A DNA stretch of 54,941 nucleotides from a virus (taxonomy: Duplodnaviria > Caudoviricetes): the IMG/VR virus record IMGVR_UViG_3300010403_000008, positions 1 to 54,941 of that record; one strand, 5' to 3'. The notes under the pieces are model-generated. The model was not told the DNA's origin. It searched no databases and was given only the letters and a program-made list of their open reading frames with translations. Shown piece after piece: positions 4,467-29,945 of this stretch. A program made the position numbers and the translations under genes. Position 1 is the first letter of the stretch. Every line of letters begins with the position of its first letter.

Positions 4467-4850
4467 GCAATATTTCGATTGATGAACTCAGACGCAGATT
4501 CCCAAACGCTTCCGCCAGTGTGCTCAAAAGGAATAGCCATGGTCATCAAACGGTGCGGAAGGATCGTGGGCCACAAGAACCGAAAGAAGATTGCGGGCAA
4601 AAGGCTGATCACAGACCCAAGAGTAAAGTCACACATGGAGGCAATTATCCGCAATTTCGAGTCCGAATTACTTTCTTTTATTCCGACAAGCGAAGGATCG
4701 ACTTGGACGGATCAGCAAACACACTCCTTGATTGCCTCTGTAGCGCCGTCAGACGATTCTTGGACCGTTATCCCGGAACTGCACCTGACAGGCAAGCTGT
4801 GCGAAAAAGGGAATGAAGGTGCAGAAATAATCATCGAACGAATCCAATGA
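4463..4850 (+). CDS. RusA-like Holliday junction resolvase locus with two overlapping open frames (4463-4816 and 4479-4850)
   Basis: One frame has VRITFFYSDKRRIDLDG..TLLDCL. The other has DDSWTVIPEL...GNEGAEIIIERI. Confidence 0.55.
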
Positions 4851-5086
4851 GAAAAATTTCCAACGAAGAACGGGACAAGATCACAGAGAAGATGGCCAAC
4901 CATTTGGGGGTAGACAACGTAATCATCATTTACGGGGATCATGTGGAGGGGAAGATTGACACGATGATGTGTTGCCATAAAGAGGTTGATTCGTTGAATT
5001 TCGGGGAGAATGCCATCGGGGCATTGCAGACCCTTCTGCGTGGAGTTGATCGTGGCAGGAAGCAGGAACAGACCAAAACTGAATAG
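4847..5086 (+). CDS. Hypothetical protein
   Basis: ATGA-coupled to the upstream ORF. Confidence 0.5.
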   Translation: MRKISNEERDKITEKMANHLGVDNVIIIYGDHVEGKIDTMMCCHKEVDSLNFGENAIGALQTLLRGVDRGRKQEQTKTE

Positions 5087-5107: not shown

Positions 5108-5701
5108 ATGCATCTTGATCACATGCGCCTAATTCTGGTGGTTTGGATGGCCCTGATTGCTGTTGTCGCTTGCTCAATGGAATTCAGGGATGTTTACGGG
5201 ATCGTTCACAATACGGATGGGAAGAACGTGATTATAGTTGTGGGCAATACCAACTGCCCTCCACTCGACAACATGATCAGGTTTCAGTTGTCTGGACTGA
5301 TCGAAGACTACCCAGATGTACTAGCTCTTGCTGTATTCCCATGCACGAATTCAGCCCCTGAAGCAGTGAAGGCGTGGCAGGCACGAGTACCTGGTGCGAA
5401 CCGATTCTGTCCTATTGAACTGGACGCCAGAATCCCACACCCATTGCTGACTCAGTGGCAGAACATGGGGTACCCGCAATATGCAGGATTTGTATTCAAT
5501 GGGTCAGGTGAATGCGTTGTGGAGTGGCCTTACTGGAAATCAAGACAGGCCGTCGAAATTCCACTCACCCGCGAATTGAATTCACTACGCATTACTGGCG
5601 GTAGCAATGGGCCTGTGGTATCGTTCAGGCAGACAAAGATTGCATGGAGGGTGATTACGAACAATGGACCAGCCACAACGTATCAACTTGTTTATCCATG
5701 A
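5108..5701 (+). CDS. Exported protein, possibly thioredoxin/redoxin-like fold
   Basis: Hydrophobic N-terminus, and FRDVYG...GKNVIIVVGNTNCPP resembles a redoxin N-terminus. Confidence 0.35.
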   Translation: MHLDHMRLILVVWMALIAVVACSMEFRDVYGIVHNTDGKNVIIVVGNTNCPPLDNMIRFQLSGLIEDYPDVLALAVFPCTNSAPEAVKAWQARVPGANRFCPIELDARIPHPLLTQWQNMGYPQYAGFVFNGSGECVVEWPYWKSRQAVEIPLTRELNSLRITGGSNGPVVSFRQTKIAWRVITNNGPATTYQLVYP

Positions 5702-5986
5702 GAGAGTCAATATCTCCATATTCAATTAGGCCAACCACATCTGGAGGAATGCCTCAGTGTAGGTGTCCTGAGTGTGGATACATTGTGGATTCTGCGAGAT
5801 GCATGGAAACTTCAGCCGAGCCGTCTTCTGGTGATGTTTCTCTGTGTCTTAATTGTGGTAGTGTGAATCAGTTCACAGACATCCTTACCCTGAAAGGGTT
5901 TCCAAACTGGCAAACGGAAGTTGAGCCAGATCAGTTCCGAATGTTAACAGCCGCGATCAATATAATCAGAAAGCGAGGATTGCTAC

Positions 5987-11539: not shown

Positions 11540-13873
11540 ATGGCAAAATTTACCAGTGCAGCCTTTGTTGAGGATACCGTCTGGACCATGCGTTTGGGGG
11601 ACTACCCCCGCTCCCTGAACCGTGCCCGTATCAACGATCTGTTCAATGGGGTTGCCCCATTCACGGCTGAATCAATCAAGGCGACCAATTCAGTCACCAA
11701 CGTCAATTTCCTTGAGTCAACCAAACTGGCCCAAGATGCGCGTGGGCAAGGGATTGGGGCACTGACCAAACCAGTCAACTACTTCACAATTACGGAGGTT
11801 GATCGTGGGCCAAAGCACAAACGCAAGGGCTTTGCCTCCACGATCACGAAGTTGATCAATCGCAAGGCGATGAAGAACAGCCTGCCTTATTACGAATCCC
11901 TGCGCTCAGTCGTAGCGAACGTAGTACTGCATGGGATTGGGCCAGTCATTTGGGATGACATGGAAAGCTGGTGCCCGAATGCGTTAGGGGTGGAGGATGT
12001 GCTTGTCCCAAGCAACACGAAGCTGACGATGCGGGATATTCCGTTCTTTGCCATCTTCAGGCCATATACAGCATTGCAATTGTACAGGCTCACTCACGGA
12101 CCCAAAGTTGATCCTGGTTGGAACATGAAGCTGGTGAACGCCTGCATTGAGGACGCAGACAGAAGGATCATTGATTTCGGTGTCCCGTACTCAGACCTGT
12201 ACTGCCCGGAAAAGCTGGCTGAACGGATGAAGGCTGACAGTGGGCTGTATTCGGCTGATTCAGTCCCAACGATTGATGCGTGGGATTTCTTCTTTTACGA
12301 TGATGAGGATGGGGAAGCGGGCTGGAGACGCAGGGTAGTACTGGATGCGAACTGGCAGTTGGGAACAGGTGGATTGGCTGGGTATTCAGGAACCAAGTCT
12401 ATTCAAGGGATGCGAACAAAGGTCGATACGAAAGGTGATTTTCTTTATGATTCAGGTGATCGGGTATATGCCGAAAAGATCAGTCAAATCGTTCACTTCC
12501 AATTCGGGGACCTGTCATCCGTCGCCCCATTTCGATACCATTCTGTTCGTTCCCTTGGGTTCCTCATGTACGCAGTTTGCCACTTGCAAAACAGATTACG
12601 ATGCAAGTTCAACGACTCATTATTTGAGCACATGCTTCAGTACTTCAGGGTTCGTTCATTGGAGGATTACGAGCGCACACTCAAGATCAACCTGATTGAG
12701 AAGGGGGTGATTGATGAGACAGTGCAGTTCATCCCGAACAACGAACGTTGGCAGGTGGATGCTGGACTGATTCAGATGGGCTTGGCTCAGAATCGGGACA
12801 TTATGGCCAGTAACAGCAGTTCCTACGTTCAGCAGAATCAGTTTGGAGGGAACCAGCCTGAGAAAACCGCAACCCAAATCATGGCTGAAGTGAACAATAA
12901 CACAGCCTTAATCAGTGCAGCCTTGGGGCAACAGTACATGTACCAGAAGTTTCAGTACATGGAGATATGCAGGCGGTTCTGCAAAGAGAATTCCCGTGAT
13001 CCAGATGTTAGAAAGTTCAGGTTGGAAGCACTGAAGTCAGGAATCCCTGAAGATGTACTTGATCCAGATTGCTGGGAACTTGAACCAGACAAGACGATGG
13101 GGGCTGGGAACAAGACATTGGAGATGGCGATTGCTGACAAGTTGATGAGTGTTCGTAATCTGTTCGATCCAGAACCTCAGCGTGACATCCTGCGTGATTA
13201 TACGCTGGCTGTGACTGATGATCCTGGACGCACGGAACGACTCGTCCCAGAGCAACCTGTGCTCGTTACGGATGCGGTGCATGATGCGCAGATTGCGGCT
13301 GCATCACTGATGATGGGGATGAAGGTGGATGTGAAGGCTGGGATGAATCACATCGAGTACATCGAAACGATGCTGGGGCAGATTGGATTGATCCTGCAAC
13401 AGATTCAAGCGTTTGGTAATATGGCCCGACCACAACAACTGGTTGGGATTGAGAACATGGTTGGGCATGTTGCCAAACACATTGCCATACTGGCTCAGGA
13501 CAAGAACGAGAAACAGCGGGTCAAGCAGTACGGGGATGCGATTGGGCAGATAATGAATCAGGTGAAGATGTACCAGCAACGATTGGTGCAGGCTCAACAG
13601 GCTGCACAGGCGCAGAACGGTCAGCCCAGAATGAGTCCTGAAGAAGCTGCGAAGGTGCAGGCGATCAATGCGCAGACACAGGCGAAGATTGAGGCCAGTG
13701 CCAAGAGCAACGCACAGAAGACAGCCCAGAGACAGACCCAGTTTGAGATTACGATGCAACAGGATGCACAGAAGCACGCTGCTGACATGGAGCAGCAGGC
13801 TAATCAGGCGCTTCTGAAGACCGGTCAAGAGGCCCTTAAAGCGGAAGCACAGCAAAATGGACCAACCGAGTAA
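11540..13873 (+). CDS. Portal protein (P22-like, Q/A-rich C-terminal barrel)
   Basis: 777 aa, first gene of the head module, KTATQI motif and a long Gln/Ala coiled-coil tail. Confidence 0.75.
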   Translation: MAKFTSAAFVEDTVWTMRLGDYPRSLNRARINDLFNGVAPFTAESIKATNSVTNVNFLESTKLAQDARGQGIGALTKPVNYFTITEVDRGPKHKRKGFASTITKLINRKAMKNSLPYYESLRSVVANVVLHGIGPVIWDDMESWCPNALGVEDVLVPSNTKLTMRDIPFFAIFRPYTALQLYRLTHGPKVDPGWNMKLVNACIEDADRRIIDFGVPYSDLYCPEKLAERMKADSGLYSADSVPTIDAWDFFFYDDEDGEAGWRRRVVLDANWQLGTGGLAGYSGTKSIQGMRTKVDTKGDFLYDSGDRVYAEKISQIVHFQFGDLSSVAPFRYHSVRSLGFLMYAVCHLQNRLRCKFNDSLFEHMLQYFRVRSLEDYERTLKINLIEKGVIDETVQFIPNNERWQVDAGLIQMGLAQNRDIMASNSSSYVQQNQFGGNQPEKTATQIMAEVNNNTALISAALGQQYMYQKFQYMEICRRFCKENSRDPDVRKFRLEALKSGIPEDVLDPDCWELEPDKTMGAGNKTLEMAIADKLMSVRNLFDPEPQRDILRDYTLAVTDDPGRTERLVPEQPVLVTDAVHDAQIAAASLMMGMKVDVKAGMNHIEYIETMLGQIGLILQQIQAFGNMARPQQLVGIENMVGHVAKHIAILAQDKNEKQRVKQYGDAIGQIMNQVKMYQQRLVQAQQAAQAQNGQPRMSPEEAAKVQAINAQTQAKIEASAKSNAQKTAQRQTQFEITMQQDAQKHAADMEQQANQALLKTGQEALKAEAQQNGPTE

Positions 13874-14673: not shown

Positions 14674-14802
14674 AAAGAGGAGCAGGAACGATCACTGTAT
14701 TCAGACTTCCAAGCGCCCGAACCGGTCCTCAACTTTGGCTTGAGGGTTGCGTGATCGTTCCCATAAATCCATAATCCATGATAGCTTAAATTGCAAATTA
14801 TT

Positions 14803-16092
14803 ATGCCCGAATCCGCTACCGCCTCACCCCCACCCCCTGCCCCCGACTTCACCCCCCTGCCTGTCCAGCAAGACTCCAGCAGTGGTTCTGCCCCACCGAT
14901 TGTGCCGTCAGCATCCCCTCGTGAGATTGATGTTGGAAAAGCTTCAGGCGGGGCCAAGCAGGACAAGACGGGTTCGGGGATGGATGATTCGATGAGTGAT
15001 TTGGACAGGCTGTTTGCGGAGACGGAGGCAAAGCCGGAAAAGCCCGCTGGTAACGCGAAGGATGAGAAGAAGCAGTCTGACCAGTCTGGGGACGAAAAGC
15101 CTGCTGGTGAGGCAGCAGACGCCAAGGAAGAGGGGTCTGGTGAGAAGTCTGGGGAGGACAAGACTGGGAACGGAAAGGCTGTCAGTGCCCCTGAATTGAG
15201 GAAGGCGTACGAGGCCCTGAAGAAAGAGGCTGCTGAACTGAGGGAGAAAGTGAAGTCCCGTGGTCCATCCGAGGATCAGGTGAAGGAATTGCAGACGTTT
15301 AAGGAACAGTACGAATCTGAGTACAAGCGTAGGCAGGAATTGGAAAAGGAATTGGCACAGAGCGCGTACGAACGATCCCCAGAATTCAATGAGAAGCACG
15401 CTGGCCCGTTCCGTAATGCGTACCAGAACGCTCGTAATCGCATTGCACAGTTCAAGGTGACTGACAGTGAAGGGGCAACCAGACAGGCGAGTCCTGATGA
15501 TTTTGATGCGATCATGCAGATTGGGGATGATATGCAGGCAGCAACGGCTGCACGGGAACTGTTCGGGGATACGGTGGGACCGATTGTGATGATGCAGCGG
15601 GAGAAGGTGCAGGAATTGCATGGGTCAATGCAGAAAGCGATTGCAGATGCAGAAACCAACTTCACCAAACACCAGCAGGAACAGAAGGTGATGTCAGAGC
15701 GCAAGCAGGCGCATTTGAACAAGCTGTGGACGACGCTAAATACGGGTGCAGCCGAGAAGTACCCCCAACTGTTCAAGCCTGTGGATGGGGACGAAAAGGG
15801 CAATGAATTGCTTCAGAGAGGATTTGAGCTTGTAGATAAAGTGTTCATGGATGGGAGCCAAATGGACCCTGAAGAGACGATTAAACTGCACAGTCAAGTG
15901 CGCAACAGGGCAGCAGCGTTTGGGAGACTGGTGTACCAGAACCGTACGATGAGTGAGAAGATTGCTGCACTGGAGAAGGAGTTGAACGCCTTTAAGGATA
16001 GTGCCCCGAAGAATGGGGATGGGAGAGCGGGGAAGAAGGGGGAGGGGGAATTGTTTGGGGAGGATGCATTGGAGAAGTATGTTGATCGGTAG
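14803..16092 (+). CDS. Capsid scaffolding protein
   Basis: Pro-rich and acidic N-terminus with long coiled coils; lies between portal and MCP. Confidence 0.7.
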   Translation: MPESATASPPPPAPDFTPLPVQQDSSSGSAPPIVPSASPREIDVGKASGGAKQDKTGSGMDDSMSDLDRLFAETEAKPEKPAGNAKDEKKQSDQSGDEKPAGEAADAKEEGSGEKSGEDKTGNGKAVSAPELRKAYEALKKEAAELREKVKSRGPSEDQVKELQTFKEQYESEYKRRQELEKELAQSAYERSPEFNEKHAGPFRNAYQNARNRIAQFKVTDSEGATRQASPDDFDAIMQIGDDMQAATAARELFGDTVGPIVMMQREKVQELHGSMQKAIADAETNFTKHQQEQKVMSERKQAHLNKLWTTLNTGAAEKYPQLFKPVDGDEKGNELLQRGFELVDKVFMDGSQMDPEETIKLHSQVRNRAAAFGRLVYQNRTMSEKIAALEKELNAFKDSAPKNGDGRAGKKGEGELFGEDALEKYVDR

Positions 16093-16096
16093 GTTG

Positions 16097-16501
16097 TTAC
16101 GATTTGCTGTCATCGTTATGGCGATTCATTACGGCAAATGAGTCTTCCATATCGTTCGTGATTGAATCAAGTTCGCTGAACCATTGAATTAGGTCACGAT
16201 TCCATACCCATTGCTCCCCCTTAAGGTCTCCAGTCACGAGTCTGGCTCGTCCGTTAATGTCTCCGCTGACTTCATTTACAATCCAACAACAGAAGCGTCT
16301 TGATGGAAGACTTCTGCCCTTAAGCACACTGGGATTGAAATAGAAATCACCAGAATTGCTCTTTTTAATAATGGCTGCTATTTCTTCAGGTGTTTTGTTC
16401 CAAAGCTTCTTCTCATCTTCAAAGAAGTTGGATAGCATTTTCAATTTCTTTTGTGCATGTATAAGGCTTCGTTTTACGTCTTTTGATTTATGGGTTTTCA
16501 T
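16097..16501 (-). CDS. Hypothetical protein, last gene of the inserted cassette
   Basis: 134 aa AT-rich ORF overlapping the upstream gene. Confidence 0.55.
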   Translation of the reverse strand: MKTHKSKDVKRSLIHAQKKLKMLSNFFEDEKKLWNKTPEEIAAIIKKSNSGDFYFNPSVLKGRSLPSRRFCCWIVNEVSGDINGRARLVTGDLKGEQWVWNRDLIQWFSELDSITNDMEDSFAVMNRHNDDSKS

Positions 16502-17252
16502 TGGTTGTAAAATTTCGTGCGATCAGATCAAACCGTTCCCTTCCCTCCCGATTGCCAATTAGCTGCCATCCCCTCCATGTCATTCGATGTCCATTGACTA
16601 TACTAACAAGACCATAAGTAGCGGCACATGAAATTGAGCTTTTGTATTTCTTTCCGGGTCTCCAGTTCAGGGTTTCTGGCGGAAACAGGTCAGGATTCAT
16701 GTGAACGAATCTGGTGATGTTTTTCACATAATGAATAACCCCACTGGGGTCTCTTAAAAAGCATTCTCTGGCCCTGATGTGATTTGGACTATAGCGTTTA
16801 GATTGTGGTGTGTTTCTAATCTTTCCAAGATGCAGTTCTCTTGTGCGAATCCTATTCTTTTCAGACTGAACAGCGGCCAGCCATTTCGATTCATCCCTGA
16901 ACAAGATTGGGCTGTGTCCTTTTTCCCGTTGTTGTATCCCGTGATACAGATAGGCACATTCTCTTGAGCAAGAGATATTACTTCTTGTCTTCCATGTGGT
17001 TTGGAATGTTTTACCGCATTGTACGCATACCTTTTCCTTGTCGTTTATTCGGATGGAGTTTCCGGCACACTGGGTTGAGCAATACTTTCTCCACGAATGA
17101 TTTGGTTTCTCAAGCCATTCCTTTCCGCATTTCTTACAGGTTAATGTGATACGTTTTGGTCTCATAATGAGAACCTGCATAATGTGGGATGTATGCGGGC
17201 ACGCATTTGGGGTTTGAGGAGATGGAGGGTCATGTGCTGGTTCCGTTTTCAA
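16488..17252 (-). CDS. CxxC zinc-finger repeat protein, homing-endonuclease-like DNA-binding architecture
   Basis: CKKCGKE...YCSTQC and CVQCGKTF...SCSREC repeats, with C-terminal LRDPSG..HYVKNI..F and WRGWQL. True start may be the ATG at 17165. Confidence 0.55.
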   Translation of the reverse strand: MKTEPAHDPPSPQTPNACPHTSHIMQVLIMRPKRITLTCKKCGKEWLEKPNHSWRKYCSTQCAGNSIRINDKEKVCVQCGKTFQTTWKTRSNISCSRECAYLYHGIQQREKGHSPILFRDESKWLAAVQSEKNRIRTRELHLGKIRNTPQSKRYSPNHIRARECFLRDPSGVIHYVKNITRFVHMNPDLFPPETLNWRPGKKYKSSISCAATYGLVSIVNGHRMTWRGWQLIGNREGRERFDLIARNFTTNENP

Positions 17253-17754
17253 TCTGTCTCAGTCCAGACTTGATCGACTCTTCTGCCGTCAGCCTGCGTT
17301 TAGCTGCCTCCGTAGCTGCTTCTAACGTATTGAGTGATCGTTTAGATGTTGCCATCGCAATCACTCCATGACTGCTGAACTGAGCGTGGAATTTGATTCG
17401 TTCTTCGTTCGTCATTTTATCCGGGTCTGCATCCTTGACCAACATTCTTCGGATGGTTCGTCTTGAGAGCCTGTGAATTCGTCTGGTTGCATCTGCTCCA
17501 ACCATGTGAAATTCACCAGCCTTCAGCCTGCGAATTCCTTGACCCCGCACATGGGCGAAATACTTCCCCGTCTCACGCTGAACGATTAGGATTGCACGAG
17601 ACAGAATCCATGCGTGTTTCTTGAACAATTCACGTCCCGGTGTCAGTGCCTGCAATTCAGCCCTTGTGATCAATTCGTGATGCTCAATCTTGTTTAGGTA
17701 TCGAGCGATGGTCACGGAATCAATGTTGGCCTGATGTGGGATTGCTGACTGCAT
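17230..17754 (-). CDS. Accessory protein of the Cas7-like/array cassette, possibly winged-HTH
   Basis: LITRAEL...ILSRAILIVQRETGKYFAHVRGQGIRRL; starts 6 nt after array 4. Confidence 0.65.
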   Translation of the reverse strand: MQSAIPHQANIDSVTIARYLNKIEHHELITRAELQALTPGRELFKKHAWILSRAILIVQRETGKYFAHVRGQGIRRLKAGEFHMVGADATRRIHRLSRRTIRRMLVKDADPDKMTNEERIKFHAQFSSHGVIAMATSKRSLNTLEAATEAAKRRLTAEESIKSGLRQIENGTST

Positions 17755-17760
17755 AAAATA

Positions 17761-17920
17761 GAGTGGTGTGTGGTGATTTGACTTGGGGTTATGTGCAGTG
17801 CGGTAGCTTGACGTGATCTGATTTGCGGTGCTGTGGGTTACTGTGTATTGGATTGCCGTGGCGTGAAGTGGCGTGCGTTTGATTGAGTTAGTGTGGCTTG
17901 CAGTGTTTTGGTGTGACGTG
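17761..17920 (-). repeat. Pentamer guide-like array 4: 32 units of CAM-NN (plus strand NN-KTG)
   Basis: Exact 5-nt period: gaGTG gtGTG tgGTG atTTG acTTG ggGTT atGTG caGTG...; non-coding. Confidence 0.9.
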
Positions 17921-17941
17921 GAGAGAAATTGGCCCCTAAAG

Positions 17942-18071
17942 ATGGTGTGTTGTGTCGTGCGTTGTTGTGACTTGATTTAGGGTGCAGTGGAATGCTGTGG
18001 GTTGCAGTGTAATGTTGTGACTTATCGTGCTGTGGTTTTGAGTGGAGTGGCGTGACTTGGGATGTAGTGTG
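17942..18071 (-). repeat. Pentamer guide-like array 3: 26 units
   Basis: ATGgt GTGtt GTGtc GTGcg TTGtt GTGac TTGat TTAgg GTGca GTGga...; exact 5-nt period. Confidence 0.9.
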
Positions 18072-18098
18072 GAGAAATTAAACAGCACGCAATGGGGG

Positions 18099-18228
18099 AT
18101 GGTGTGGAGTGTTGTGAGTTGGCGTGTCTTGTGTTGGCACGAATTGCGGTGTCGTGTTTTGATTTAGCGTGCAGTGTTTTGAAGTGTTGTGTGTTGCGGT
18201 GCCTTGTTGTGTCCTGATGTGTTTTGGT
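18099..18228 (-). repeat. Pentamer guide-like array 2: 26 units
   Basis: ATGgt GTGga GTGtt GTGag TTGgc GTGtc...; begins 2 nt after the Cas7-like stop codon. Confidence 0.9.
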
Positions 18229-18230
18229 GA

Positions 18231-18791
18231 TTAAATTCGTTCTAACTTGGACACTTCAAATCGACCATTAGTTCCGCCCTTCTCAGCACGGAACTGGCCC
18301 AACCCAATGAACATCCCCGCATGGTCCAAATGCTCCCGTAAAATCTTCTCGTCAATCGCATCATCCAGAACGGCGATTGTAACGGTGGTCTTCCATGAAG
18401 TCAGGGTTGGGATGCAGCGAGCAACCCGCTTTCCTGAGCCTCGTATCCCGTCTGAGTTGGCGTTGATCCAGATTGGCTTGGCATCAGCACGAGTCATCCC
18501 AAGGTCCGCATCGTCCATCACGAGTAGGCCGCTCTCGAACAGCTTCGTATAGGTTCGTTTACCCTTACCCGGAACCTGTCTGCCAAGATGCTTGGCTGCT
18601 GCACAGATGCAGAACTTCAGAGCCATAGCTGGAATGATGCACCTACCAGCCTCGTTTACGCGAAGCTTTTCGAGGTAGCAGCGAACTTCAAAATCTTCGT
18701 GGGTTTCGCGGTCTGCGCGTTTGGACGTGAATGGAGCGCCTCCCCCTAACGGGGTGACGGATTGTAAGGTTACTCGGAATTTGTTTAACAT
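18231..18791 (-). CDS. Stand-alone Cas7/RAMP-like RNA-binding protein (Vipr-like)
   Basis: RAMP hallmarks: N-terminal FRVTLQSVTPL strand, IIPAMALK (IP.S.LKG-like), and a C-terminal Gly-rich loop AGMFIGLGQFRAEKGGTNGRFEV. Confidence 0.8.
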   Translation of the reverse strand: MLNKFRVTLQSVTPLGGGAPFTSKRADRETHEDFEVRCYLEKLRVNEAGRCIIPAMALKFCICAAAKHLGRQVPGKGKRTYTKLFESGLLVMDDADLGMTRADAKPIWINANSDGIRGSGKRVARCIPTLTSWKTTVTIAVLDDAIDEKILREHLDHAGMFIGLGQFRAEKGGTNGRFEVSKLERI

Positions 18792-18910
18792 GATGGAGTG
18801 ATGTGGTGTGTTTTGGTGTGCCGTGTCTTGATGTGTCGTGTGGTGTCTTGAATTGCAGTGAAGTGAGGTAGGTTGGTTTGCTGTGCAATGGTTTGTGTTG
18901 TCGTGTCGTT
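18791..18910 (-). repeat. Pentamer guide-like array 1: 24 units, decodes to an MCP-gene target
   Basis: Minus strand AACga CACga CAAca CAAac CATtg CACag CAAac CAAcc TACct CACtt CACtg CAAtt CAAga CACca CACga CACat...; abuts the Cas7-like start codon. Confidence 0.92.
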
Positions 18911-18914
18911 TCGG

Positions 18915-19064
18915 GTCCGGTTAGACCGGACAAAAAGTCCGCTCAGGTGAAAGACCAGATCGAATGGGGCTGGTCCGGTTTCCCGGAACTGAGCGGACCG
19001 AAAGTCCAAAGTGTCAGTCTTGCGCCATTCGACCGGCTTTCACACCAGTCACGGACGAGCGGAC
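18915..19064 (-). ncRNA. Structured, potentially pseudoknotted leader RNA of the cassette
   Basis: Perfect complementary pairs: 18915-21/18925-31, 18937-46/18989-98, 18953-58/18970-75, 18960-67/19025-32 and 18947-53/19037-43. Confidence 0.55.
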
Positions 19065-19091
19065 AATCCACCACTACCAGATGTTTGTCAA
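19063..19091 (-). promoter_or_regulatory. Putative sigma70 promoter driving the leader, arrays and Cas7-like operon
   Basis: Minus strand TTGACA-N17-GATTGT. Confidence 0.5.
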
Positions 19092-19103
19092 ATTGAAATC
19101 CGT

Positions 19104-19132
19104 TTGACTTTTACTTTACCGATAATTATTGT
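19104..19132 (+). promoter_or_regulatory. Putative sigma70 promoter for the MCP operon, divergent from the cassette promoter
   Basis: TTGACT-N17-TATTGT. Confidence 0.55.
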
Positions 19133-19308
19133 GCAAAACAGCTAGGCGTAATTGGCTTTCACTAGCGGCCATCACCTGTCGTTCGGGGTGGAATAAACAA
19201 TCGAACTACAGCGTAGCGGTATGGGAACCAGAAGGTTCGCTGTTCTTCAAAAGAATCCCCAACGGAATCTCTCACGTACGAGAGAAAAACTTTTAACGAA
19301 GAACTAAA

Positions 19309-20640
19309 ATGGCTAGTACACTTTCCTGTGGGGCATTTACTCAGTACCTCGTCGATCAGCTACCTGTTTATGATAAGTTGATTTTGGAGGACATTCGTCC
19401 GATGGACGGTTGGATCGGACATGTTAAGACGGGTACGTTCGAGGCGTACTCGGGCACAGAGCATACTCTGGACCGTTTCAATCACGTGTACCCGGATACA
19501 ACCAAGGCTTGGTCCCGAACTCAGGCCAGTAATTGCATCGGAACTCCTTGTGACAAAACGGAATACTGCATTGGGTGGGGTGCGACAAGAATCACTTATT
19601 TTTTGGAAGAGCAAAGTTGGGCGACGCCATTACTTTGTTTCGATCAGGAAATGCACATCACAAAAGCAAGAGAAAATTTCCGATATATTATCGGAGGAAT
19701 TCTCAAGCCCGCCACTTCGACCATCATGTCGAACTTCCTGCGTCGTCGTGCCCTCACGATTGGCACGGGCAAGAAGTGGGTGGCCAATGCCACAATGTCT
19801 GATTTCGTGCCCACCTGGGTCACTGTAGGCGGTTCTGAACTGTATCTGGACGTGACTGTGGAACCCACTTCCCGGCTCACTCCACAAATGCTTCAGCGTC
19901 GTGTGTCCCCACTCATGCTGATGGGCTATTTCGGGAAGAACCCGTTCGGGGACCGCAAATCCATTCCTTTGATCGAACTGGTCACTGGCATGGAAACTCT
20001 GTGGGACTTGGACAAGCAGGTCTGCGACAGCAACATCTCTGGCGCATGGCGGTTCACAGAATGGACGGCAGCCAACGAGTACTGGCGGTACGGCTTCAAC
20101 GGGCAGTTGGGCAACTACGCAACCCGTGCAGACCCAATGGAGATGCGGTTCAACCGTGTTGGTCCCGTGGCTGGTGGCAAGATTCGTTTCCAGTTCATCC
20201 AGCCCTACGTGAACGTCGCATCCAGTGGGGCTGGTGGTGCCCCCGGTCTCAAGTCGATTGAGAATGAAGACTGGCAGAATGCTCGTTACTCCATCAGCTT
20301 CATCTGGCACAAGATGGCGATGGAAGCACTGGTCGCAGACGCAACCCCGGTCAATCCCGAAATGCCATTCTCGTCCCGTAACTTCGGTGGACGCTGGCAG
20401 TTCGTGAAGGACAACCTGGGTGCGTGTGAGGACGGGACAGTCATTGAGAACAAGCGCGGGAACAAGGGTCAGTTCATCAGCGACTTCAAGCTGTCGATCA
20501 GACCCATGTACACCGAATTCGCGGAAGCGATCTTCCACATGCGCAATCGGGCCTGCATCACGATCTGCCCTCCGTGTGGCACTGATCCTGGGTATCCGAC
20601 TCAGAGCTACAACAGTTGCAATCCTGACTGCACACCGTAA
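19309..20640 (+). CDS. Major capsid protein
   Basis: 443 aa, follows the scaffold (apart from the insert), strongly biased codon usage, and followed by a terminator hairpin. Confidence 0.75.
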   Translation: MASTLSCGAFTQYLVDQLPVYDKLILEDIRPMDGWIGHVKTGTFEAYSGTEHTLDRFNHVYPDTTKAWSRTQASNCIGTPCDKTEYCIGWGATRITYFLEEQSWATPLLCFDQEMHITKARENFRYIIGGILKPATSTIMSNFLRRRALTIGTGKKWVANATMSDFVPTWVTVGGSELYLDVTVEPTSRLTPQMLQRRVSPLMLMGYFGKNPFGDRKSIPLIELVTGMETLWDLDKQVCDSNISGAWRFTEWTAANEYWRYGFNGQLGNYATRADPMEMRFNRVGPVAGGKIRFQFIQPYVNVASSGAGGAPGLKSIENEDWQNARYSISFIWHKMAMEALVADATPVNPEMPFSSRNFGGRWQFVKDNLGACEDGTVIENKRGNKGQFISDFKLSIRPMYTEFAEAIFHMRNRACITICPPCGTDPGYPTQSYNSCNPDCTP

Positions 20641-21127: not shown

Positions 21128-21682
21128 ATGGCAATCGCCTGCGATGCTGCCTCGTTGATGCTCAATGCCGCCTGTATTACTGAGTGCATTGCGCATGGGC
21201 AGGCGAACGCAATCAAGACCCAGCTTCTGGCTGACATTGCGGGTGGTTCTCAGGACCCGGGCACCCTCCTAGACGCTGCCCGCTGTTTCCTTTGCCTGAC
21301 CCGTACACAACTACTGGCCATTCGCGTTTACCTGCTGGCCATTCTATCCGGTACGTCTCCCACATCTCAGGCGATACAGGATCAATCGTGTTGCCTGCAA
21401 AATTGTCTGACCATTGGTCAGTTGAGTCTAATCCAGATTTACATTCTGGCAGTCAAGGCTGGTGAGTCTCCTAATGGCAATCTCCTCGATCCTGCCCGTT
21501 GCTTCCTTTCCTGCCTGATGGGGATTCAGAATGATGCGATCCAGACCTACCTTCTGGCTGTGATTGCGGGTGGTTCGACTGACCAGCAAGCCCTTCTATC
21601 ACTCGCTTCCTGTATTCTGGAATGCCTGTCTGGAGAGCAGTTGCTGGCTGCTGAGACGGTCCTAATGTGTCTTTGGGTTTAA
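21128..21682 (+). CDS. Cys-rich internally repeated protein, putative virion component (paralog 1)
   Basis: About five repeats of LL.AA.C..CL...QL.AI..YLLA. Confidence 0.65.
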   Translation: MAIACDAASLMLNAACITECIAHGQANAIKTQLLADIAGGSQDPGTLLDAARCFLCLTRTQLLAIRVYLLAILSGTSPTSQAIQDQSCCLQNCLTIGQLSLIQIYILAVKAGESPNGNLLDPARCFLSCLMGIQNDAIQTYLLAVIAGGSTDQQALLSLASCILECLSGEQLLAAETVLMCLWV

Positions 21683-21685
21683 GAT

Positions 21686-22327
21686 ATGCCATTTGAATGC
21701 GATGCAGCCTCACTGGTAGAAGCAGGGTGTTGCGTTTCCTGTTTGGAAGGGGGTCAGCTACAGGCAATCAAGACCCATCTGCTGGCCCAAATCGCAGGAG
21801 TCCCAACAAACATCGCTTCCCTGCTTGAAGCAGCCAGTTGTTTCTTCTGTCTGACCAGTCAACAATTGGCAGCAATCAGGGTGTGGCTTCTGGCTGACTT
21901 GGGTGGGATTGAACAGGACCCACAGGCGATCATGGATGAAACATGCTGCCTGTTGCAGTGCTTGTCCAAATTTCAAGCACTGTCTGCCCAAGTCGCAATC
22001 CTGGCTGAAATCAATGGGGACGATCCAAACAACGTTGCTGGGATGTTCAATGCTTGTTGTGAACTCTCTTGTCTGTCTGGAATTCAAAACGATGCGGTCC
22101 AAACTTATTTGGTGGCAGTTGCTGCGGGTGGTAGCACAGATGCAATCGAACTATTCGGGAATGCATCATGCGTTTATACATGTCTTTCACCGGGCCAGAT
22201 GGTGTATGCTGAAACAGCGATGATGTGTGCATGGTCAAACAATCTGGGTGGAACGTTCTTCAGGATCACTGACGATTTGGAACGAAGAATTACTGACGAA
22301 CTGGATAACAGGATTTGGAGAAATTGA
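21686..22327 (+). CDS. Cys-rich internally repeated protein (paralog 2) with a C-terminal RITD..ERRITD motif
   Basis: Co-linear with 21128-21682; the C-terminus resembles short fibre-attachment motifs. Confidence 0.65.
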   Translation: MPFECDAASLVEAGCCVSCLEGGQLQAIKTHLLAQIAGVPTNIASLLEAASCFFCLTSQQLAAIRVWLLADLGGIEQDPQAIMDETCCLLQCLSKFQALSAQVAILAEINGDDPNNVAGMFNACCELSCLSGIQNDAVQTYLVAVAAGGSTDAIELFGNASCVYTCLSPGQMVYAETAMMCAWSNNLGGTFFRITDDLERRITDELDNRIWRN

Positions 22328-26993: not shown

Positions 26994-29945
26994 TTACGCT
27001 GAGTAGTTCAGTGCCCCCGCATGATGCAGATCAAGCGCCTTCTTCCTGAGCGTGTCCTTCCAGTCGTCATTCTGGGGCTTCTGTGGGGCAGCAACGGAGC
27101 GTAGCTGGAAGCCCTTTTGTCTGGCCCCTTCGATCAGTGTGGCGAGCCAGTCCATCAAGTCTGGGGACCTTCCCATTCGTTCCTTGGTTTTTATCTTAGG
27201 CTCAATTTCGATCCTGTTTCCAGCAACCATTGTCCACTCCCTGGTCATCCCATCCTCCAAAACGTCTTCAGTCAGGCCCCTAAATTGGCCAGCCTCCATA
27301 GCGTACCGGGTCATAAACCACAGTTCGGTCACAAATTTACTGAAATGTTCGTCACATCTCTTTGGTCGCATCTTGCGTTCAGACTCATCATAAATCTGAA
27401 GCTCTGTAGAGACGGGCCTTGATGTGGGCTTTCCCCCAAACTCCAGAGGATTTACGAATGGACTCCAGATACGGGAGAATGCGGTCCCAAGGGACCCCCT
27501 CCCGGTGGCGTCGTAGAATACGTGATTGGCTGGAATCCCCGCTTCAATGCACGCCTCCCTGACAAACATTACGATCTGATCTTCCGGCTCTGTATCTGTG
27601 CCAGCTTTAACTGGAATAATAACATGCGGCATCATGTGGATAATCAGGTCGCCATTGGCATCCAATCCAAACGAACCCCATCCTCCAACACAGCGATCTC
27701 CTCCAACTTCTCCGTATGCTGCATCCACTGCGTAGATTTTAGTCTGCCTATCATCTTTCCAAGCGACTTCCTCAAACGCCTTGAACTTGATTGCGATATT
27801 TCGTGTGAATATCCTGCGTCCGTTAAGCCCTGCCTTCCTGACACCCTTACATTGACTCCAGAACTGGAGACTGTCCCGACCATAGAAAGCAGCAACGGAT
27901 TCAATGCTTTTGGAATTTATCATCCAAGGGTACTTCGTTGGCTGATCTTTGGGATAATCCTCATTTGGAGAATCTGTGCCAACAAGATTAACCGTTCTGC
28001 CGTTCTCAAAACGATTATCCCAAACTGTTGTCTTGGTGATTTCCCCTTCGGTTCCCCAACCATTTTTAGGTTCAGAGATGCGGTCCAACGGATCACCGAT
28101 ACCAAGTGGATTCCCAACGAATACCCCTTTGAAGTCGTGTCCTTCGCCAGTGCCGGAGTTAAGGTTGGCTAATGCATCCAAGTAGCCAGCCTTCATTAAC
28201 TGCGATTCGTCTCCTAGTAGTCTCCTTCTTTTTTGTTTAATCCCCACGTACTTCCCTAATCCCTGCCATGAACCGCCAGAGGACATGCACGGGATGCAGT
28301 TGTGAACTACGACTCCATTTACGCTGTACGATGGGTGATTGTCAACCGAGAGATTGTAGACGCGATGTCCTGAATCACTAAATCCAACTCTTCCCTCACT
28401 CTTGTTTTCGAGAACCTCAACACTTGCCACCCAAGCGTGTTTAGTTCTTCCGTTCTCTTCGCGTCCGCCTTTCGCTTGAATGCTATCCGATGAATCCCAC
28501 CGTCGATTTCGACTGCCAGTTTCAGCCACGGGAACGCTATGTCTATTTCGTAAAAATGCCGAACGTTTTTTCTGGTTCTCCTGCCCGTCATTACTCTGAA
28601 ATGAAGTTCTGCTCCGATGAATGCTGAGGCGATTGCCTGTTCCTCTTTGGTGATTTTCAGATGATCTTCCCCGCTCTTGCGATCCCTGTTTTTCCATCTG
28701 CAAGATTCTCCGCAAAATCTCGTCCGAAACCTCGTCTTGGAAAGAATTATCGAGATGAATGGTTCCGCACATTCCTCGCATTTCCTTTGTTCTGGAAGCA
28801 TCTGGCAGAATTTCGTGCAGAACAGTTGGTTCGGGTGAGCCTGAAATGCTTTTCCGCAATGAGCACAGTTCTGCGTCGTTCGCTTTGGTCCAAGCCCATT
28901 TGCTGCTGCCCAACGACTCGCGCATGTTGTGCTGCAAAATCTGCCCCAATGTGGTGGGCGACTTGGTTTTGGTTTTACTGGTCTGTAAATTGCCTGACAG
29001 AATTCGCATGGTCTTTCTGGAAGCCTGTCTCGACAAAGAGCAGAGCAATGTTTCCTGTTTGGGTATCCTGGTCCGAGTGGTTGGTTGCAAGAGGCGCAGA
29101 GTTTCATGTATTGAGAACACCCTATCGTAAGTCTTTAACTTACTCGCGTCAACCCATCCTCTGCGTGTAAAGAACGGATGCTCAGGTGTGCAATCTATGG
29201 TTCTCCCATCCGATAACGTTACCCTTACTAACTCTCTGGCAATACTGCATTGTATTTCTGTTACTTTACCGATACCGAAAGCATTTAACACTTCTTCTCC
29301 AGGACTGATCGTTTCGATTGATTTTTTTCCTGACGGAGTATCGACTTGAGTTCCCGCCACAAAACAAATAATCCCCTTTCTTAAATCCCTAGTCTCCCCC
29401 TCAATAAGATTGTCGGTACAAATCGCGTGCTTACTATCGAGCAGATGCCCCGGAAGGGATGGGTAGCGATCTTTCGCCTGCTTGAACATATTCTTCATGT
29501 CACCCCAAACACGAAGCTCCAACCCACGAACGTCTGTGGACGAAACAAGAATGAGTGTGTTGTGGGGGAATGCGAAGTAGTCAGTCAATGCGTAACGCGT
29601 TAATGCACAATGAGTTTTTCCGCTATCTCGCGGGCCTAGCACAGCTAGGATTGTGCTTTTAAGCGTCTCCTCTAAAATCAAATCGCTCCATCTATGATGG
29701 GCGTCTTTAGGCCATAAAAGTTGCATCAGACGCTTGTAGTGGAAAAAATCCCCCATCCCCAATGTTTGACCTTGTTTCCCCTTCCAGCTTCCGCCCTTAC
29801 GTATGCAGTATAGCTCGATTTCAATTGCATCCATAACTGGCGGAAACGAAAGCCCGTACAGGTTTTTCTTCGCTTTCGGATTCCGCTTTGGGCCGCTGAA
29901 ACGTGGCACTGTGGGGTCGTTCGGATTCGCTGGATTTTCGCTCAT
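26994..29945 (-). CDS. terL: Terminase large subunit containing an intein
   Basis: Walker A GPRDSGKT, Walker B LLGDESQ, coupling motif VGNP, and nuclease motifs YAVDAAYG, YDATGRG and GRSPDLMD. Confidence 0.85.
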   Translation of the reverse strand: MSENPANPNDPTVPRFSGPKRNPKAKKNLYGLSFPPVMDAIEIELYCIRKGGSWKGKQGQTLGMGDFFHYKRLMQLLWPKDAHHRWSDLILEETLKSTILAVLGPRDSGKTHCALTRYALTDYFAFPHNTLILVSSTDVRGLELRVWGDMKNMFKQAKDRYPSLPGHLLDSKHAICTDNLIEGETRDLRKGIICFVAGTQVDTPSGKKSIETISPGEEVLNAFGIGKVTEIQCSIARELVRVTLSDGRTIDCTPEHPFFTRRGWVDASKLKTYDRVFSIHETLRLLQPTTRTRIPKQETLLCSLSRQASRKTMRILSGNLQTSKTKTKSPTTLGQILQHNMRESLGSSKWAWTKANDAELCSLRKSISGSPEPTVLHEILPDASRTKEMRGMCGTIHLDNSFQDEVSDEILRRILQMEKQGSQERGRSSENHQRGTGNRLSIHRSRTSFQSNDGQENQKKRSAFLRNRHSVPVAETGSRNRRWDSSDSIQAKGGREENGRTKHAWVASVEVLENKSEGRVGFSDSGHRVYNLSVDNHPSYSVNGVVVHNCIPCMSSGGSWQGLGKYVGIKQKRRRLLGDESQLMKAGYLDALANLNSGTGEGHDFKGVFVGNPLGIGDPLDRISEPKNGWGTEGEITKTTVWDNRFENGRTVNLVGTDSPNEDYPKDQPTKYPWMINSKSIESVAAFYGRDSLQFWSQCKGVRKAGLNGRRIFTRNIAIKFKAFEEVAWKDDRQTKIYAVDAAYGEVGGDRCVGGWGSFGLDANGDLIIHMMPHVIIPVKAGTDTEPEDQIVMFVREACIEAGIPANHVFYDATGRGSLGTAFSRIWSPFVNPLEFGGKPTSRPVSTELQIYDESERKMRPKRCDEHFSKFVTELWFMTRYAMEAGQFRGLTEDVLEDGMTREWTMVAGNRIEIEPKIKTKERMGRSPDLMDWLATLIEGARQKGFQLRSVAAPQKPQNDDWKDTLRKKALDLHHAGALNYSA
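28299..29366 (-). mobile_element. Intein (356 aa) in the TerL ATPase domain
   Basis: Begins CFVAGTQV, block B CTPEHPFFT, and ends VYNLSVDNHPSYSVNGVVVHN followed by a +1 Cys. Confidence 0.92.
28319..29107 (-). CDS. Endonuclease nested in an alternate frame of the intein: CxxC repeats plus DUF559/Vsr-like domain
   Basis: Four CxxC...(F/H)C...C repeats, then YEIDIAFPWLKLAVEIDGGIH...DAKRTEELNTLGWQVLRF. Confidence 0.85.
   Translation of the reverse strand: MKLCASCNQPLGPGYPNRKHCSALCRDRLPERPCEFCQAIYRPVKPKPSRPPHWGRFCSTTCASRWAAANGLGPKRTTQNCAHCGKAFQAHPNQLFCTKFCQMLPEQRKCEECAEPFISIILSKTRFRTRFCGESCRWKNRDRKSGEDHLKITKEEQAIASAFIGAELHFRVMTGRRTRKNVRHFYEIDIAFPWLKLAVEIDGGIHRIAFKRKADAKRTEELNTLGWQVLRFSKTRVREELDLVIQDIASTISRLTITHRTA

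Follow-up and report, generated by a model that had tools for sequence, protein, structure and literature searches.

What does an antisense cassette do between two structural genes of a phage, and which of its genes act together? The stretch of DNA analysed here, referred to as the window, is the complete 54.9-kb (54,941-nucleotide) genome of an uncultured phage, IMGVR_UViG_3300010403_000008. A first-pass annotation had described an insert of about 3.2 kb, antisense between the scaffold and MCP genes, and a 3216-bp minus-strand block (16093-19308) was confirmed there. It lies between a scaffold-like ORF encoding an acidic, coiled-coil protein of 433 aa (14791-16092, plus strand) and an MCP-like ORF of 443 aa (19309-20640, plus strand). 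The labels portal, scaffold and MCP are putative and come solely from gene order, size and conservation; the three proteins matched nothing in Pfam, PHROGs, PDB sequences (searched with a 9-member profile) or GenBank phages, and a genome-wide scan for Rfam families and tRNAs was negative.

The left edge of the block is sharp and coincides with the stop codon of the scaffold-like ORF. The same gap in nine relatives, collected through their MCP-like proteins, holds 0.4-2.2 kb of different minus-strand cargo, and its content differs between every close relative. In the closest relative, L002, a His-Me/HNH_3-like ORF occupies the same place (E 1.6e-5 and 7.8e-5, just below the Pfam cut-offs). The interval between the scaffold-like and MCP-like genes is a hypervariable cargo slot; in this phage it holds a composite insert, the antisense block of 3.2 kb.

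One part of this insert is a VIPR module (17230-18905, minus strand), comprising vipr, four arrays and the o174 gene. VIPR is a CRISPR-related, RNA-guided DNA silencer described in 2026 preprints (bioRxiv 10.64898/2026.04.26.720920, 10.64898/2026.04.26.720927, 10.64898/2026.10.15.759431), which assign it a role in silencing competing elements and describe it for GGY-type guides directed against satellites, prophage regulators and other VIPR loci. The vipr gene, o186 (18231-18791, minus strand), encodes a stand-alone RAMP/Cas7-like protein of 186 aa. The best PDB structure matches to its predicted model (AF2, pLDDT 95.7) were Csm3 and type VII Cas7 (Foldseek, E 2.4e-8, probability 1.0). A profile of the o186 family found 36pp_D, 'SUSP1 Vipr protein', in the PDB (E 6.4e-8), and o186 matches PHROG 4652 (E 4e-11). 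The RNA-guided Cas7-like system suspected earlier was in this way borne out as VIPR. IMG/VR holds 492 relatives of o186; the Vipr comparison set used below is the 80 IMG/VR loci that were kept, and counts of array cores add the window.

The four vrRNA arrays lie on the minus strand. The upstream array (18792-18905) has 23 CA[C/A]NN units and reaches the vipr ATG; downstream of vipr are array A (18226-18097, 26 units), array B (18069-17940, 26 units) and array C (17920-17761, 32 units). All 107 units keep a strict five-base register, built on a CA[C/A] core plus two variable bases. C occupies position 1 in 97 units and A occupies position 2 in 106, so that these two are fixed at 91-99%; at position 3, 60 units have C and 37 have A, and positions 4-5 are near-uniform. 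The core contains no G and admits a purine at position 3 (37/107 units), and it differs from the GGY, NNNGG, YNNNG and NNNNG consensuses given in the preprint (bioRxiv 10.64898/2026.04.26.720920). Across the 54.9-kb genome, five-base TG/CA periodicity is confined to the two flanks of o186, and only one of the nine relatives shows such periodicity, the one with o186. The array ends are alike (CACAC, then CAYCY-like units), and the short spacers between downstream arrays end in ATTTCTC-like sequence. These spacers are unstructured, since shuffled sequences fold as well (z -0.65 and +0.92), and this folding revealed no SUSP1-like structured 3' tail between arrays. A CRISPR-like reading was rejected because repeat-spacer structure is absent: repeat scans found no repeat-spacer CRISPR array. 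Pfam scans of 12 + 25 ORFs found no cas family (Cas10, Cas6, Cas1, Cas2).

A clear five-base array flanks vipr in 65 of the 80 IMG/VR loci. Together with the window, these have the cores CGC (24), GGC (14), CnC (9), CAC (4), GAC, GTC, CTC and GnC (3 each) and others (3). The core covaries with the Vipr G-loop position aligned to SUSP1 D177, which is described as a base-contacting residue (bioRxiv 10.64898/2026.04.26.720927). Loci with G as the second core base have R at this position (40/40), CAC loci have Q (4/4) and GAC loci have F (3/3), a covariation that is confounded by phylogeny because the independent lineages are few. The covariation points to a simple protein-RNA recognition code, in which the repeat core can change completely while the base-contacting residue changes along with it, R with G and Q or F with A. 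Such a code would be testable and could be used for orthogonal VIPR tools.

The three minus-strand ORFs at 16097-16501, 16488-17252 and 17230-17754 are real, and it had been suggested that one of them may be the effector; co-occurrence with vipr ties the winged-helix ORF to the system and removes the other two as candidates. That ORF, o174 (17230-17754, minus strand), encodes a 174-aa protein with an N-terminal winged helix and a helical C-terminal half, in keeping with its earlier description as wHTH-like. In its AF2 model (pLDDT 91.6), residues 2-83 match winged-helix domains with Z 8.7 (VIA) and Z 6.6; a Foldseek search returned nothing at E <= 0.001. An iterated profile detected the o174 family in 68 of the 80 Vipr loci, adjoining vipr and always on its strand (62 downstream, 6 upstream), and 9 of the 12 loci without it end within about 1 kb of vipr. 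The sister phage L004, which has the same VIPR module, carries a copy that is 78% identical, and in Pseudomonas phage LESphi2 the profile also matches the ORF that follows vipr (E 4.1e-9). These patterns indicate that o174 is the usual accessory protein (Vap) of the VIPR system. The VIPR preprints report that vap1 enhanced protection in SUSP1, and by analogy Vap probably helps at the DNA.

The o254 frame (minus strand) is open to a TTG at 17252 (254 aa), with the ATG at 17183 the more likely start (16488-17183, 231 aa). Its product has CxxC zinc ribbons, two or three in number, which a linker separates from a conserved C-terminal domain; relatives at E<=1e-3 number 765. It had been called homing-endonuclease-like; its zinc ribbons do match PHROG 'HNH endonuclease' families, but over residues 33-110 only, the non-catalytic part. 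The C-terminal domain matches PDB 9kja_A (E 5.5e-18), which bears the depositor name 'HNH endonuclease'; no paper on this entry was found. None of 36 o254 family members matched a Pfam HNH model or any other Pfam nuclease family, and Pfam and NCBIfam family scans detected no catalytic nuclease domain in o254, o174 or o134. We read o254 as having a predicted DNA-binding architecture of the homing-endonuclease-associated type, in which no catalytic domain was detected. Among the Vipr loci it occurs in 0/80 and among the MCP relatives, sister L004 included, in 0/9; its presence is sporadic, at a conserved site. The 134-aa ORFan o134 (16097-16501, minus strand) had earlier been listed as unknown; among 5.8 billion proteins it found only itself, it matched nothing in Pfam, PHROG or NCBIfam, its atlas model is poor (pLDDT 0.41), and it too is in 0/80 Vipr loci. 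A peptide-pattern search of IMG/VR for relatives of both returned a single, spurious 12-residue match.

A conserved leader of about 50 nt (17182-17233, minus strand) ends at the o254 ATG. Copies that are 88-92% identical, two in L002 and one in L003, precede unrelated minus-strand cargo ORFs, each ending at or near the start codon. In L004, o254 and o134 are replaced by an unrelated 142-aa ORF. Because they are missing from L004 and from all 80 Vipr loci, o254 and o134 are not effectors; they travel in this slot as independent passengers, and each has a leader of its own. The annotation is corrected to the effect that, among the three ORFs, the 174-aa gene alone belongs to the VIPR system.

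Between the cassette and the MCP-like gene lies a leader (18906-19308) that is common to relatives with other cargo. Homology to L002 resumes at 18929 and homology to L003 at 19145. Because L002 has this leader with different cargo, the segment 18929-19308 is backbone sequence rather than part of the cassette, which speaks against the earlier idea that the cassette brought promoters restoring MCP expression. The back-to-back promoters placed at 19063-19132 were not recovered either: on the plus strand the scan of the leader gave two sigma-70-like sites, both weak (19039-19067 and 19104-19132, 9/12 each), on the minus strand it gave none at 19063-19132, and the five promoter-like sites in the region are no excess over shuffles (3.7 ± 1.6). 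A stretch of about 145 nt (19050-18902, minus strand) is strongly structured (-61.8 kcal/mol, z -3.96, 0/200 shuffles). Runs X2 and X3 have contigs that span o174, vipr and the leader; 16104-17160 is uncovered, which is itself uninformative. Among the public runs listed for this sequence, none is of RNA.

Guides were read by the published code, in which the two variable bases pair and one base is skipped. The best own-genome match of the upstream guide falls in the MCP-like gene, at 19608 and 703 bp away (33/46, a score reached by 0/300 shuffled guides), in good agreement with the earlier estimate of about 700 bp. With the one-base skip, matches to MCP-like genes reached 21/24, and controls scored 18 at most. 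No match rose above controls with skip lengths of 0 and 2, and the skip-3 matches were arrays matching themselves; the one-base skip alone gives an above-control non-self match. The skipped base lands on the wobble position of the MCP-like codons. Unit position 3 was rejected as a pairing base, since on inspection the skipped target base does not track it. The units that read the MCP-like gene are 1-15 of the upstream array. Guide footprints cover codons ~96-122 (19593-19676, plus strand), with the guide of this phage at 19608-19676 and that of L004 starting from 19593, so that both VIPR phages aim at the same region; it is highly conserved, the most conserved stretch of the MCP-like gene. An exact 10-unit pattern from the upstream array found seven IMG/VR loci, and 7/7 were the homologous MCP-like site, at 27-28/30.

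Arrays A, B and C gave no own-genome match above shuffled guides, and so no self match, and nothing above shuffled guides in ~0.86 Mb of collected loci. IMG/VR was searched for exact matches to one 10-unit stretch from each. The patterns from arrays C and A had 0 matches, and the array B pattern had one metagenome match (23/52 overall), which was rejected as chance because agreement stops at the edges of the pattern. A recognisable target was found for one of the four arrays, the upstream one; targets of A-C may well exist, given that a single exact 10-unit stretch was searched per array.

The target site in this phage is matched less well than in many of its relatives. Over units 1-15 the self allele scores 25/30 (83%) and 11 of 16 other alleles score 26-28/30, among them those of the VIPR-less siblings L002 and L003 (26/30); four more distant alleles fall below self (21-24). 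A perfect allele for the guide is absent, and units 3 and 5 fit nowhere. Self-discrimination in this phage is slight. The mismatched self allele proposed earlier is real as an imperfect match that lies below some siblings, but the avoidance is weak (25/30 against 26-28/30). The contrast is clearer in the sister phage: the L004 guide scores 24/24 on L002, L003 and L100, against 22/24 for this phage and 20/24 for L004 itself. In the L004 self allele, Ser AGx has become TCx, Leu CTx has become TTx and Tyr has been replaced by Phe; pairing is lost precisely through the synonymous switches of Ser and Leu codon family.

The MCP-like gene is itself a mosaic. Its 5' tract (19309-19723, plus strand) is divergent, with a recombination breakpoint after codon 131-138. 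Relative to L002, wobble positions differ in 77/131 codons before the break and 60/313 after it (Fisher 1e-15, 0/200 permutations); relative to L003 the figures are 80/138 and 60/306. The breakpoint lies 25-50 bp beyond the guide footprints. This pattern of differences indicates that the divergent 5' tract is co-inherited with the cassette.

Taken as a whole, the data are fitted best by a system that silences competitors and is linked to a self allele which its guide matches less well. We consider it quite likely that the composite block has a VIPR core which acts in this way and carries o254 and o134 as passengers. By analogy with the SUSP1 and P. fulva systems, the vrRNA arrays would be expressed and form an RNP with Vipr, with Vipr protomers polymerising on the vrRNA, one per five-base unit. 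Vipr would bury the conserved three-base core, here CA[C/A] instead of GGY, and the two variable bases that it presents would pair with double-stranded DNA, every third base being skipped. This pairing would silence transcription. The upstream guide is written against the conserved MCP-like stretch (codons ~96-122) of sibling phages, and therefore the copy of a rival would be shut down in a mixed infection. The mismatched own allele and the cassette are inherited as one recombination block, which keeps 'weapon' and 'insensitive target' linked. The competitive role, like the function of Vap, is inferred; allele exclusion during co-infection, one of two outcomes foreseen in the first-pass annotation, fits the role that the preprints assign to VIPR. 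The locus offers a concrete, testable case of an RNA-guided weapon linked to its immunity allele, with a tract that ends just past the target.

An extension of competitor silencing is conceivable but rather doubtful, namely that the cassette makes up, with the 5' third of the MCP-like gene, a single selfish haplotype that spreads like a poison-antidote or drive element. In mixed infections, the guide would then silence the neighbour gene, an essential one, in siblings that lack the cassette, and only recombinants that gain both the cassette and the linked mismatched allele would escape. If this is true, it would be an RNA-guided counterpart of intron-less homing for which a nuclease is not needed.

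RNA-guided homing proper, the other outcome foreseen, would have the guide mark the cassette-free allele, o254 or a host enzyme cut it, and repair from the VIPR-carrying genome copy in the cassette together with the insensitive allele, in the manner of free-standing homing endonucleases. Such a process would account for a target 703 bp from the array in a gene that flanks the cassette, and for a tract resembling co-conversion that runs from the cassette to 25-50 bp past the target; the His-Me/HNH_3-like ORF at the equivalent place in L002, the homing-endonuclease-type DNA-binding modules of o254 and its C-terminal match to an 'HNH endonuclease' chain are in line with it too. We nevertheless regard homing as improbable. 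L004 has the same module and a guide to the same target region but lacks o254, as do all 80 other Vipr loci, and no catalytic nuclease family was detected in o254, o174 or o134. The SUSP1 and P. fulva-type (vap1-type) VIPRs are described as binding and silencing with no cutting (bioRxiv 10.64898/2026.04.26.720920), and ordinary recombination, with linkage then favoured by selection, would produce such a mosaic tract just as readily.

Still less probable is that the upstream guide tunes or times the phage's own MCP-like gene, with no competition between phages. The 83% self match over units 1-15 does exceed the score of 0.8 at which the papers call targets (bioRxiv 10.64898/2026.04.26.720920, 10.64898/2026.10.15.759431), the guide adjoins its target, and the two VIPR-carrying phages converge on one region. 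However, the L004 guide is perfect on VIPR-less siblings and worst among close relatives on itself, and the synonymous Ser and Leu switches remove pairing from its own allele. In the window, the self match drops to 72% over all 23 units and the three other arrays have none; the surveys reported in the preprint (bioRxiv 10.64898/2026.04.26.720920) found no self-targets at 0.8 or above. That all four minus-strand genes form a single operon-like defence or counter-defence island, with o254 and o134 acting together with VIPR, is very unlikely: the genes are adjacent on one strand with overlapping or closely spaced ORFs, and HNH-domain Vaps are among the published VIPR types (bioRxiv 10.64898/2026.04.26.720920), but o254 and o134 have a co-occurrence of 0/80 and are absent from L004, the leader of o254 also fronts unrelated L002 and L003 cargo, and o134 is without any relatives.

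Competitor silencing with a linked self allele can be set beside several known systems. Like Csm3 and type VII Cas7, o186 has an RRM/RAMP fold with a glycine-rich loop and a thumb; unlike type III CRISPR-Cas, the arrays have five-base and not six-base periodicity and carry the guide in interrupted dinucleotides. T4-like phages contain free-standing homing endonuclease genes, the seg and mob genes. Like these, the cassette is a selfish insert between conserved genes with its target in the neighbour gene of insert-free relatives, its own allele is protected by sequence differences, and a flanking tract is co-inherited. Unlike seg and mob, recognition would be by an RNA guide and not by a protein, no nuclease was identified, and the likely outcome is a silenced rival and not cleavage and repair.

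Pseudomonas phage vB_Pae_LESphi2 (OQ594955) has a VIPR locus that is unannotated: P21_9 is 29% identical to o186, and the next ORF, P21_8, is the o174 family match. In contrast to the locus described here, LESphi2 has canonical GGCNN arrays, all upstream of vipr and each followed by a longer spacer, and its VIPR locus adjoins a cI/cro switch and not a structural module.

The closest comparison is with the vap1 VIPRs of Escherichia phage SUSP1 and a Pseudomonas fulva prophage, which are classed as type II (bioRxiv 10.64898/2026.04.26.720920). Shared with both are a stand-alone RAMP protein homologous to SUSP1 Vipr, five-base tandem units with three fixed and two variable bases, a small DNA-binding-type accessory gene on the strand of vipr, and a guide that matches, with one base skipped and in wobble alignment, a coding target of a rival element. 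The locus further resembles SUSP1 in being phage-borne and in its array layout of one upstream and three downstream (bioRxiv 10.64898/2026.04.26.720920). It differs from both in its core, which is CA[C/A] and not GGY, has no guanine and allows a purine at position 3, and in the placement of its arrays, which lie between vipr and vap and not, as described for those systems, after both genes. The residue aligned to SUSP1 D177 is Gln here, the structured tail of SUSP1 was not found between the arrays, and the arrays, at 23-32 units, are far longer than the 9-16 repeats given for published VIPRs. The targets described for SUSP1 and P. fulva are a satellite and a prophage regulator, whereas the target here is the neighbour gene of the cassette in sibling phages. 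Measured against VIPR as the preprint texts describe it, the features that mark this locus as a variant are the G-less core and the next-door target.

The antisense block of this phage contains a VIPR system, a CRISPR-related RNA-guided DNA silencer of a type published in 2026, and o186 is its Vipr protein. The window bears direct terminal repeats and the IMG/VR record is complete at 54,941 bp. A portal-like ORF (777 aa, 11540-13873), an acidic, coiled-coil scaffold-like ORF (433 aa, 14791-16092) and an MCP-like ORF (443 aa, 19309-20640) lie on the plus strand, "MCP" being the label of the first-pass annotation. The suffix "-like" is kept for all three because Pfam, PHROGs, PDB sequences (9-member profile) and 50,697 GenBank phages (tblastn) gave no match; the analysis is independent of what the 443-aa protein does and presupposes only that no gene in the group is more strongly conserved. 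The 3216-bp gap between the scaffold-like and MCP-like ORFs holds the minus-strand genes o134 (16097-16501), o254 (16488-17252), o174 (17230-17754) and o186 (18231-18791), with 476 bases of non-coding DNA between o174 and o186 and about 520 more beyond o186. These coordinates bear out the anatomy first described, three minus-strand ORFs between the scaffold-like and MCP-like genes. Other selfish or counter-defence genes of this phage, all on the minus strand, are a NUMOD3 and DUF559/Vsr-like endonuclease ORF (128-1072), a homologue of the CBASS inhibitor Acb3 (1864-2760, E 1.6e-27) and a 983-aa protein with an intein (26994-29945; Intein_splicing, E 5.9e-10).

Relatives of o186 numbered 492 in IMG/VR and at least 50 in the protein collection, none of the latter family members having a Pfam domain. 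A Foldseek search with its AlphaFold model (pLDDT 95.7) gave 189 chains at E <= 0.001, among them Csm3 and type VII Cas7 (E 2.4e-8, probability 1.0), and the family profile matched the solved "SUSP1 Vipr protein" (36pp_D, E 6.4e-8). The non-coding DNA of the block is made up of four minus-strand arrays in strict five-base register: an upstream array of 23 units that reaches the o186 start codon (18905-18792), then arrays A (26 units, 18226-18097), B (26 units, 18069-17940) and C (32 units, 17920-17761). Across the 107 units, position 1 was C in 97, position 2 was A in 106, and position 3 was C in 60 with A in a further 37; the bases at positions 4 and 5 were about uniformly distributed. Five-base periodicity occurred nowhere else in the genome and, among nine relatives, only in the one that also carries o186. 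Metagenome contigs (X2) contained a relative with exactly one additional five-base unit in the upstream array, at window position 18823, and a wholly different array beside the vap start (loose end 17770), although the flanking genes were 85-99% alike; the arrays therefore change by whole units, with fast turnover.

The 174-aa ORF is the regular accessory protein of the system, Vap. Only two relatives of o174 came up in a word-based protein search, and tblastn gave weak matches adjoining vipr in 14 of 80 IMG/VR Vipr loci, but iterating a profile over the 4010 ORFs that these loci contain led to convergence on 68 of the 80. The matches always shared the strand of vipr (62 downstream, 6 upstream), and nine of the 12 loci without one are truncated on the side in question, about 1 kb or less from vipr. 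Pseudomonas phage vB_Pae_LESphi2 (OQ594955, L092) has an unannotated VIPR locus beside its cI/cro switch (2466-3971). There the o174 profile matched the ORF after vipr (P21_8, of the Vap family); P21_9, annotated as "hypothetical protein", is the Vipr homologue (29% identical to o186), and canonical GGCNN arrays (~2466-2570 and 2596-2815) precede vipr. The o174 model (pLDDT 91.6) has an N-terminal helix-strand-helix-helix-hairpin domain that in a wide structural search matched the winged helices 5wy5_B (Z 8.7) and PurR 1o57_A (Z 6.6, rmsd 2.8 over 69 residues); Foldseek returned weak winged-helix matches (best E 0.09). The earlier "wHTH-like" call and the candidate role of o174 are upheld, because the main VIPR preprint describes winged-helix-like and HTH-like Vaps, and SUSP1 vap1 improves protection (bioRxiv 10.64898/2026.04.26.720920).

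The first-pass annotation had offered o254 and o134 as candidate effectors as well, with co-occurrence with the Cas7-like gene as the check. Neither had a counterpart in the 80 Vipr loci (the lone o134 match is a 21-residue chance match) or in the nine relatives, and in the sister phage L004 vipr (92% identical), arrays and vap (78%) are followed by an unrelated 142-aa Cys-rich ORF. Both are passengers, unrelated cargo, and o134 is an ORFan. The o254 family has 765 representatives at E <= 1e-3, mostly viral by Atlas taxa, with two or three CxxC zinc ribbons, a linker and a conserved C-terminal domain that the alignment also shows alone. This domain matched a 111-residue PDB chain (9kja_A, E 5.5e-18) that its depositors named "HNH endonuclease"; a literature search found no paper on the entry. 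PHROG "HNH endonuclease" matches covered the zinc ribbons only, and none of 36 family members matched a Pfam nuclease model. The proposed homing-endonuclease-like architecture thus stands for the DNA-binding parts but not for a catalytic centre.

The slot itself is filled differently among relatives carrying the MCP-like gene. Homology to L002 stops at the scaffold-like stop codon (16091) and picks up again at 18929; that to L003 picks up again at 19145. In L002 (MCP-like protein 98% identical) the cargo comprises small ORFs and, where vipr would stand, a His-Me/HNH_3-like ORF (5220-5708, minus strand; Pfam E 1.6e-5 and 7.8e-5, just below cut-offs) and an XRE-type HTH gene (4601-4891), so the slot that in L002 houses what is probably a classical homing endonuclease is occupied in sibling phages by an RNA-guided system. 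L003 (96% identical) carries two paralogous small ORFs, the gap is 0.4-1.65 kb in more distant relatives, and, of the nine relatives, only L004 had vipr, arrays and vap together. A leader of about 50 nt (17182-17233) ends at the o254 ATG (17183), and copies 88-92% identical precede unrelated minus-strand cargo ORFs in L002 (4123-4173, 4397-4446) and L003 (7124-7167); the slot's cargo thus consists of modular cassettes. This leader is C/A-rich, has no Shine-Dalgarno-like motif, and resembles in its last bases the final vrRNA-array units before vipr; the slot may use it as a portable module for expression or recombination.

Since homology to L002 resumes at 18929, the leader upstream of the MCP-like gene is part of the backbone rather than of the cassette. 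This leaves the suggestion that back-to-back promoters restore MCP expression without support, and a promoter scan found nothing beyond chance at the supposed sites. A strongly structured stretch of about 145 nt (18902-19050, minus strand; -61.8 kcal/mol, z -3.96, 0/200 shuffles) adjoins the 5' side of the upstream array; the greater part, from 18929, is in DNA common to L002, whose cargo differs, and the stretch could be an RNA leader, insulator or terminator of the backbone. Two tandem paralogous Cys-rich ORFs (21128-21682, 184 aa; 21686-22327, 213 aa), ~50-56% alike with internal repeats, lie 3' of the MCP-like gene and are present in all close relatives.

Guide queries in the published form, built for each array from the two variable bases and a fixed skip of 0 to 3, were searched against the window and nine relatives. 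A non-self signal arose with skip 1 alone: on the MCP-like genes of L003, L006 and L007 the upstream array reached 21/24, where shuffled guides reached 18 at most. Skip-3 matches were rejected as targets, being arrays that matched themselves. In its own genome the best site of the upstream guide was at 19608, 703 bp from the array (33/46, reached by 0/300 shuffled guides). The first reading of a Cas7-like, RNA-guided system with its target next door was correct. The guide skips the wobble position of the target, as in the VIPR preprints. An exact 10-unit pattern occurred at seven IMG/VR loci, each time at the homologous position in an MCP-like gene of ~60% identity (27-28/30 over units 1-15). 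No other stretch of the MCP-like protein is as conserved as this site (…EEQSWATPLLCFDQEM…), which overlaps one of the six peptide patterns drawn from that protein for the locus search. Arrays A, B and C had no target among the own genome, related loci and IMG/VR patterns searched.

Over units 1-15 (maximum 30), 17 alleles were scored: the self and L004 alleles reached 25, those of L002, L003, L006 and L007 26, L094-L100 27-28, and L005 and L008-L010 21-24. With self at 25 against 21-28 elsewhere, this phage avoids its own allele only slightly; no known allele is matched by units 3 and 5. It is clearer in the sister L004, whose first 12 upstream units scored 24/24 on L002, L003 and L100, 22/24 on this phage and 20/24 on its own allele, which carries Ser AGx to TCx, Leu CTx to TTx and Tyr to Phe changes. 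The mismatched self allele previously claimed is thus evident in the sister and only slight here.

Compared with L002, the MCP-like gene differed at the wobble position in 77/131 codons before codon 131 and 60/313 after (Fisher 1e-15; 0/200 permutations); compared with L003, the break fell after codon 138 (80/138 vs 60/306). Over codons 31-120, this phage and L004 differed at 10-12 wobble positions per 30 codons and L004 and L002 at 15-19; over the 3' part the distance between this phage and L002 is much smaller. The breakpoint (~19702-19723) lies 25-50 bp past the guide footprints (19593-19676) and the insert has a sharp left edge, so the cassette and the part of the neighbouring gene that bears the target were inherited as one block. 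Such inheritance is predicted both by selection for linkage of a guide with an insensitive allele and by homing-type co-conversion. No enzyme was found for RNA-guided homing, which we consider improbable, and selection for linkage is more economical because it needs no nuclease. Of the two functions proposed earlier, allele exclusion is the best-supported candidate.

Cores on the vipr strand at 66 loci (65 IMG/VR loci with a clear array and the window) were CGC 24, GGC 14, CnC 9, CAC 4, GAC 3, GTC 3, CTC 3, GnC 3 and others 3. The CAC loci include the window and L004; alternative cores named in the available portion of the main preprint's text all contain G, CAC not among them (bioRxiv 10.64898/2026.04.26.720920). 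Among these loci, taken from the 80 IMG/VR Vipr loci (L012-L091) and the window and phylogenetically non-independent, the G-loop position aligned with SUSP1 D177 was R in 40/40 loci with G as second core base, Q in 4/4 CAC loci (and in L073) and F in 3/3 GAC loci, and the thumb motif was A-N-x-D-G when core position 1 was C (37/41) and V-P-x-D-G when it was G (23/23). In SUSP1, D177 contacts the first guanine, and its replacement by alanine abolishes activity (bioRxiv 10.64898/2026.04.26.720927). Covariation of the core with a single G-loop residue (R, Q, F or T) and the thumb motif (ANxDG or VPxDG) suggests a simple code by which the vrRNA core may be read out. Published VIPR systems consist of a lone RAMP gene flanked by long intergenic regions of five-base tandem repeats in which the core is fixed and two bases vary, and SUSP1 has one vrRNA upstream, three downstream and one small accessory gene, vap (bioRxiv 10.64898/2026.04.26.720920). 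The present locus fits this anatomy, with a lone RAMP gene, one five-base array upstream and three downstream, and one vap.
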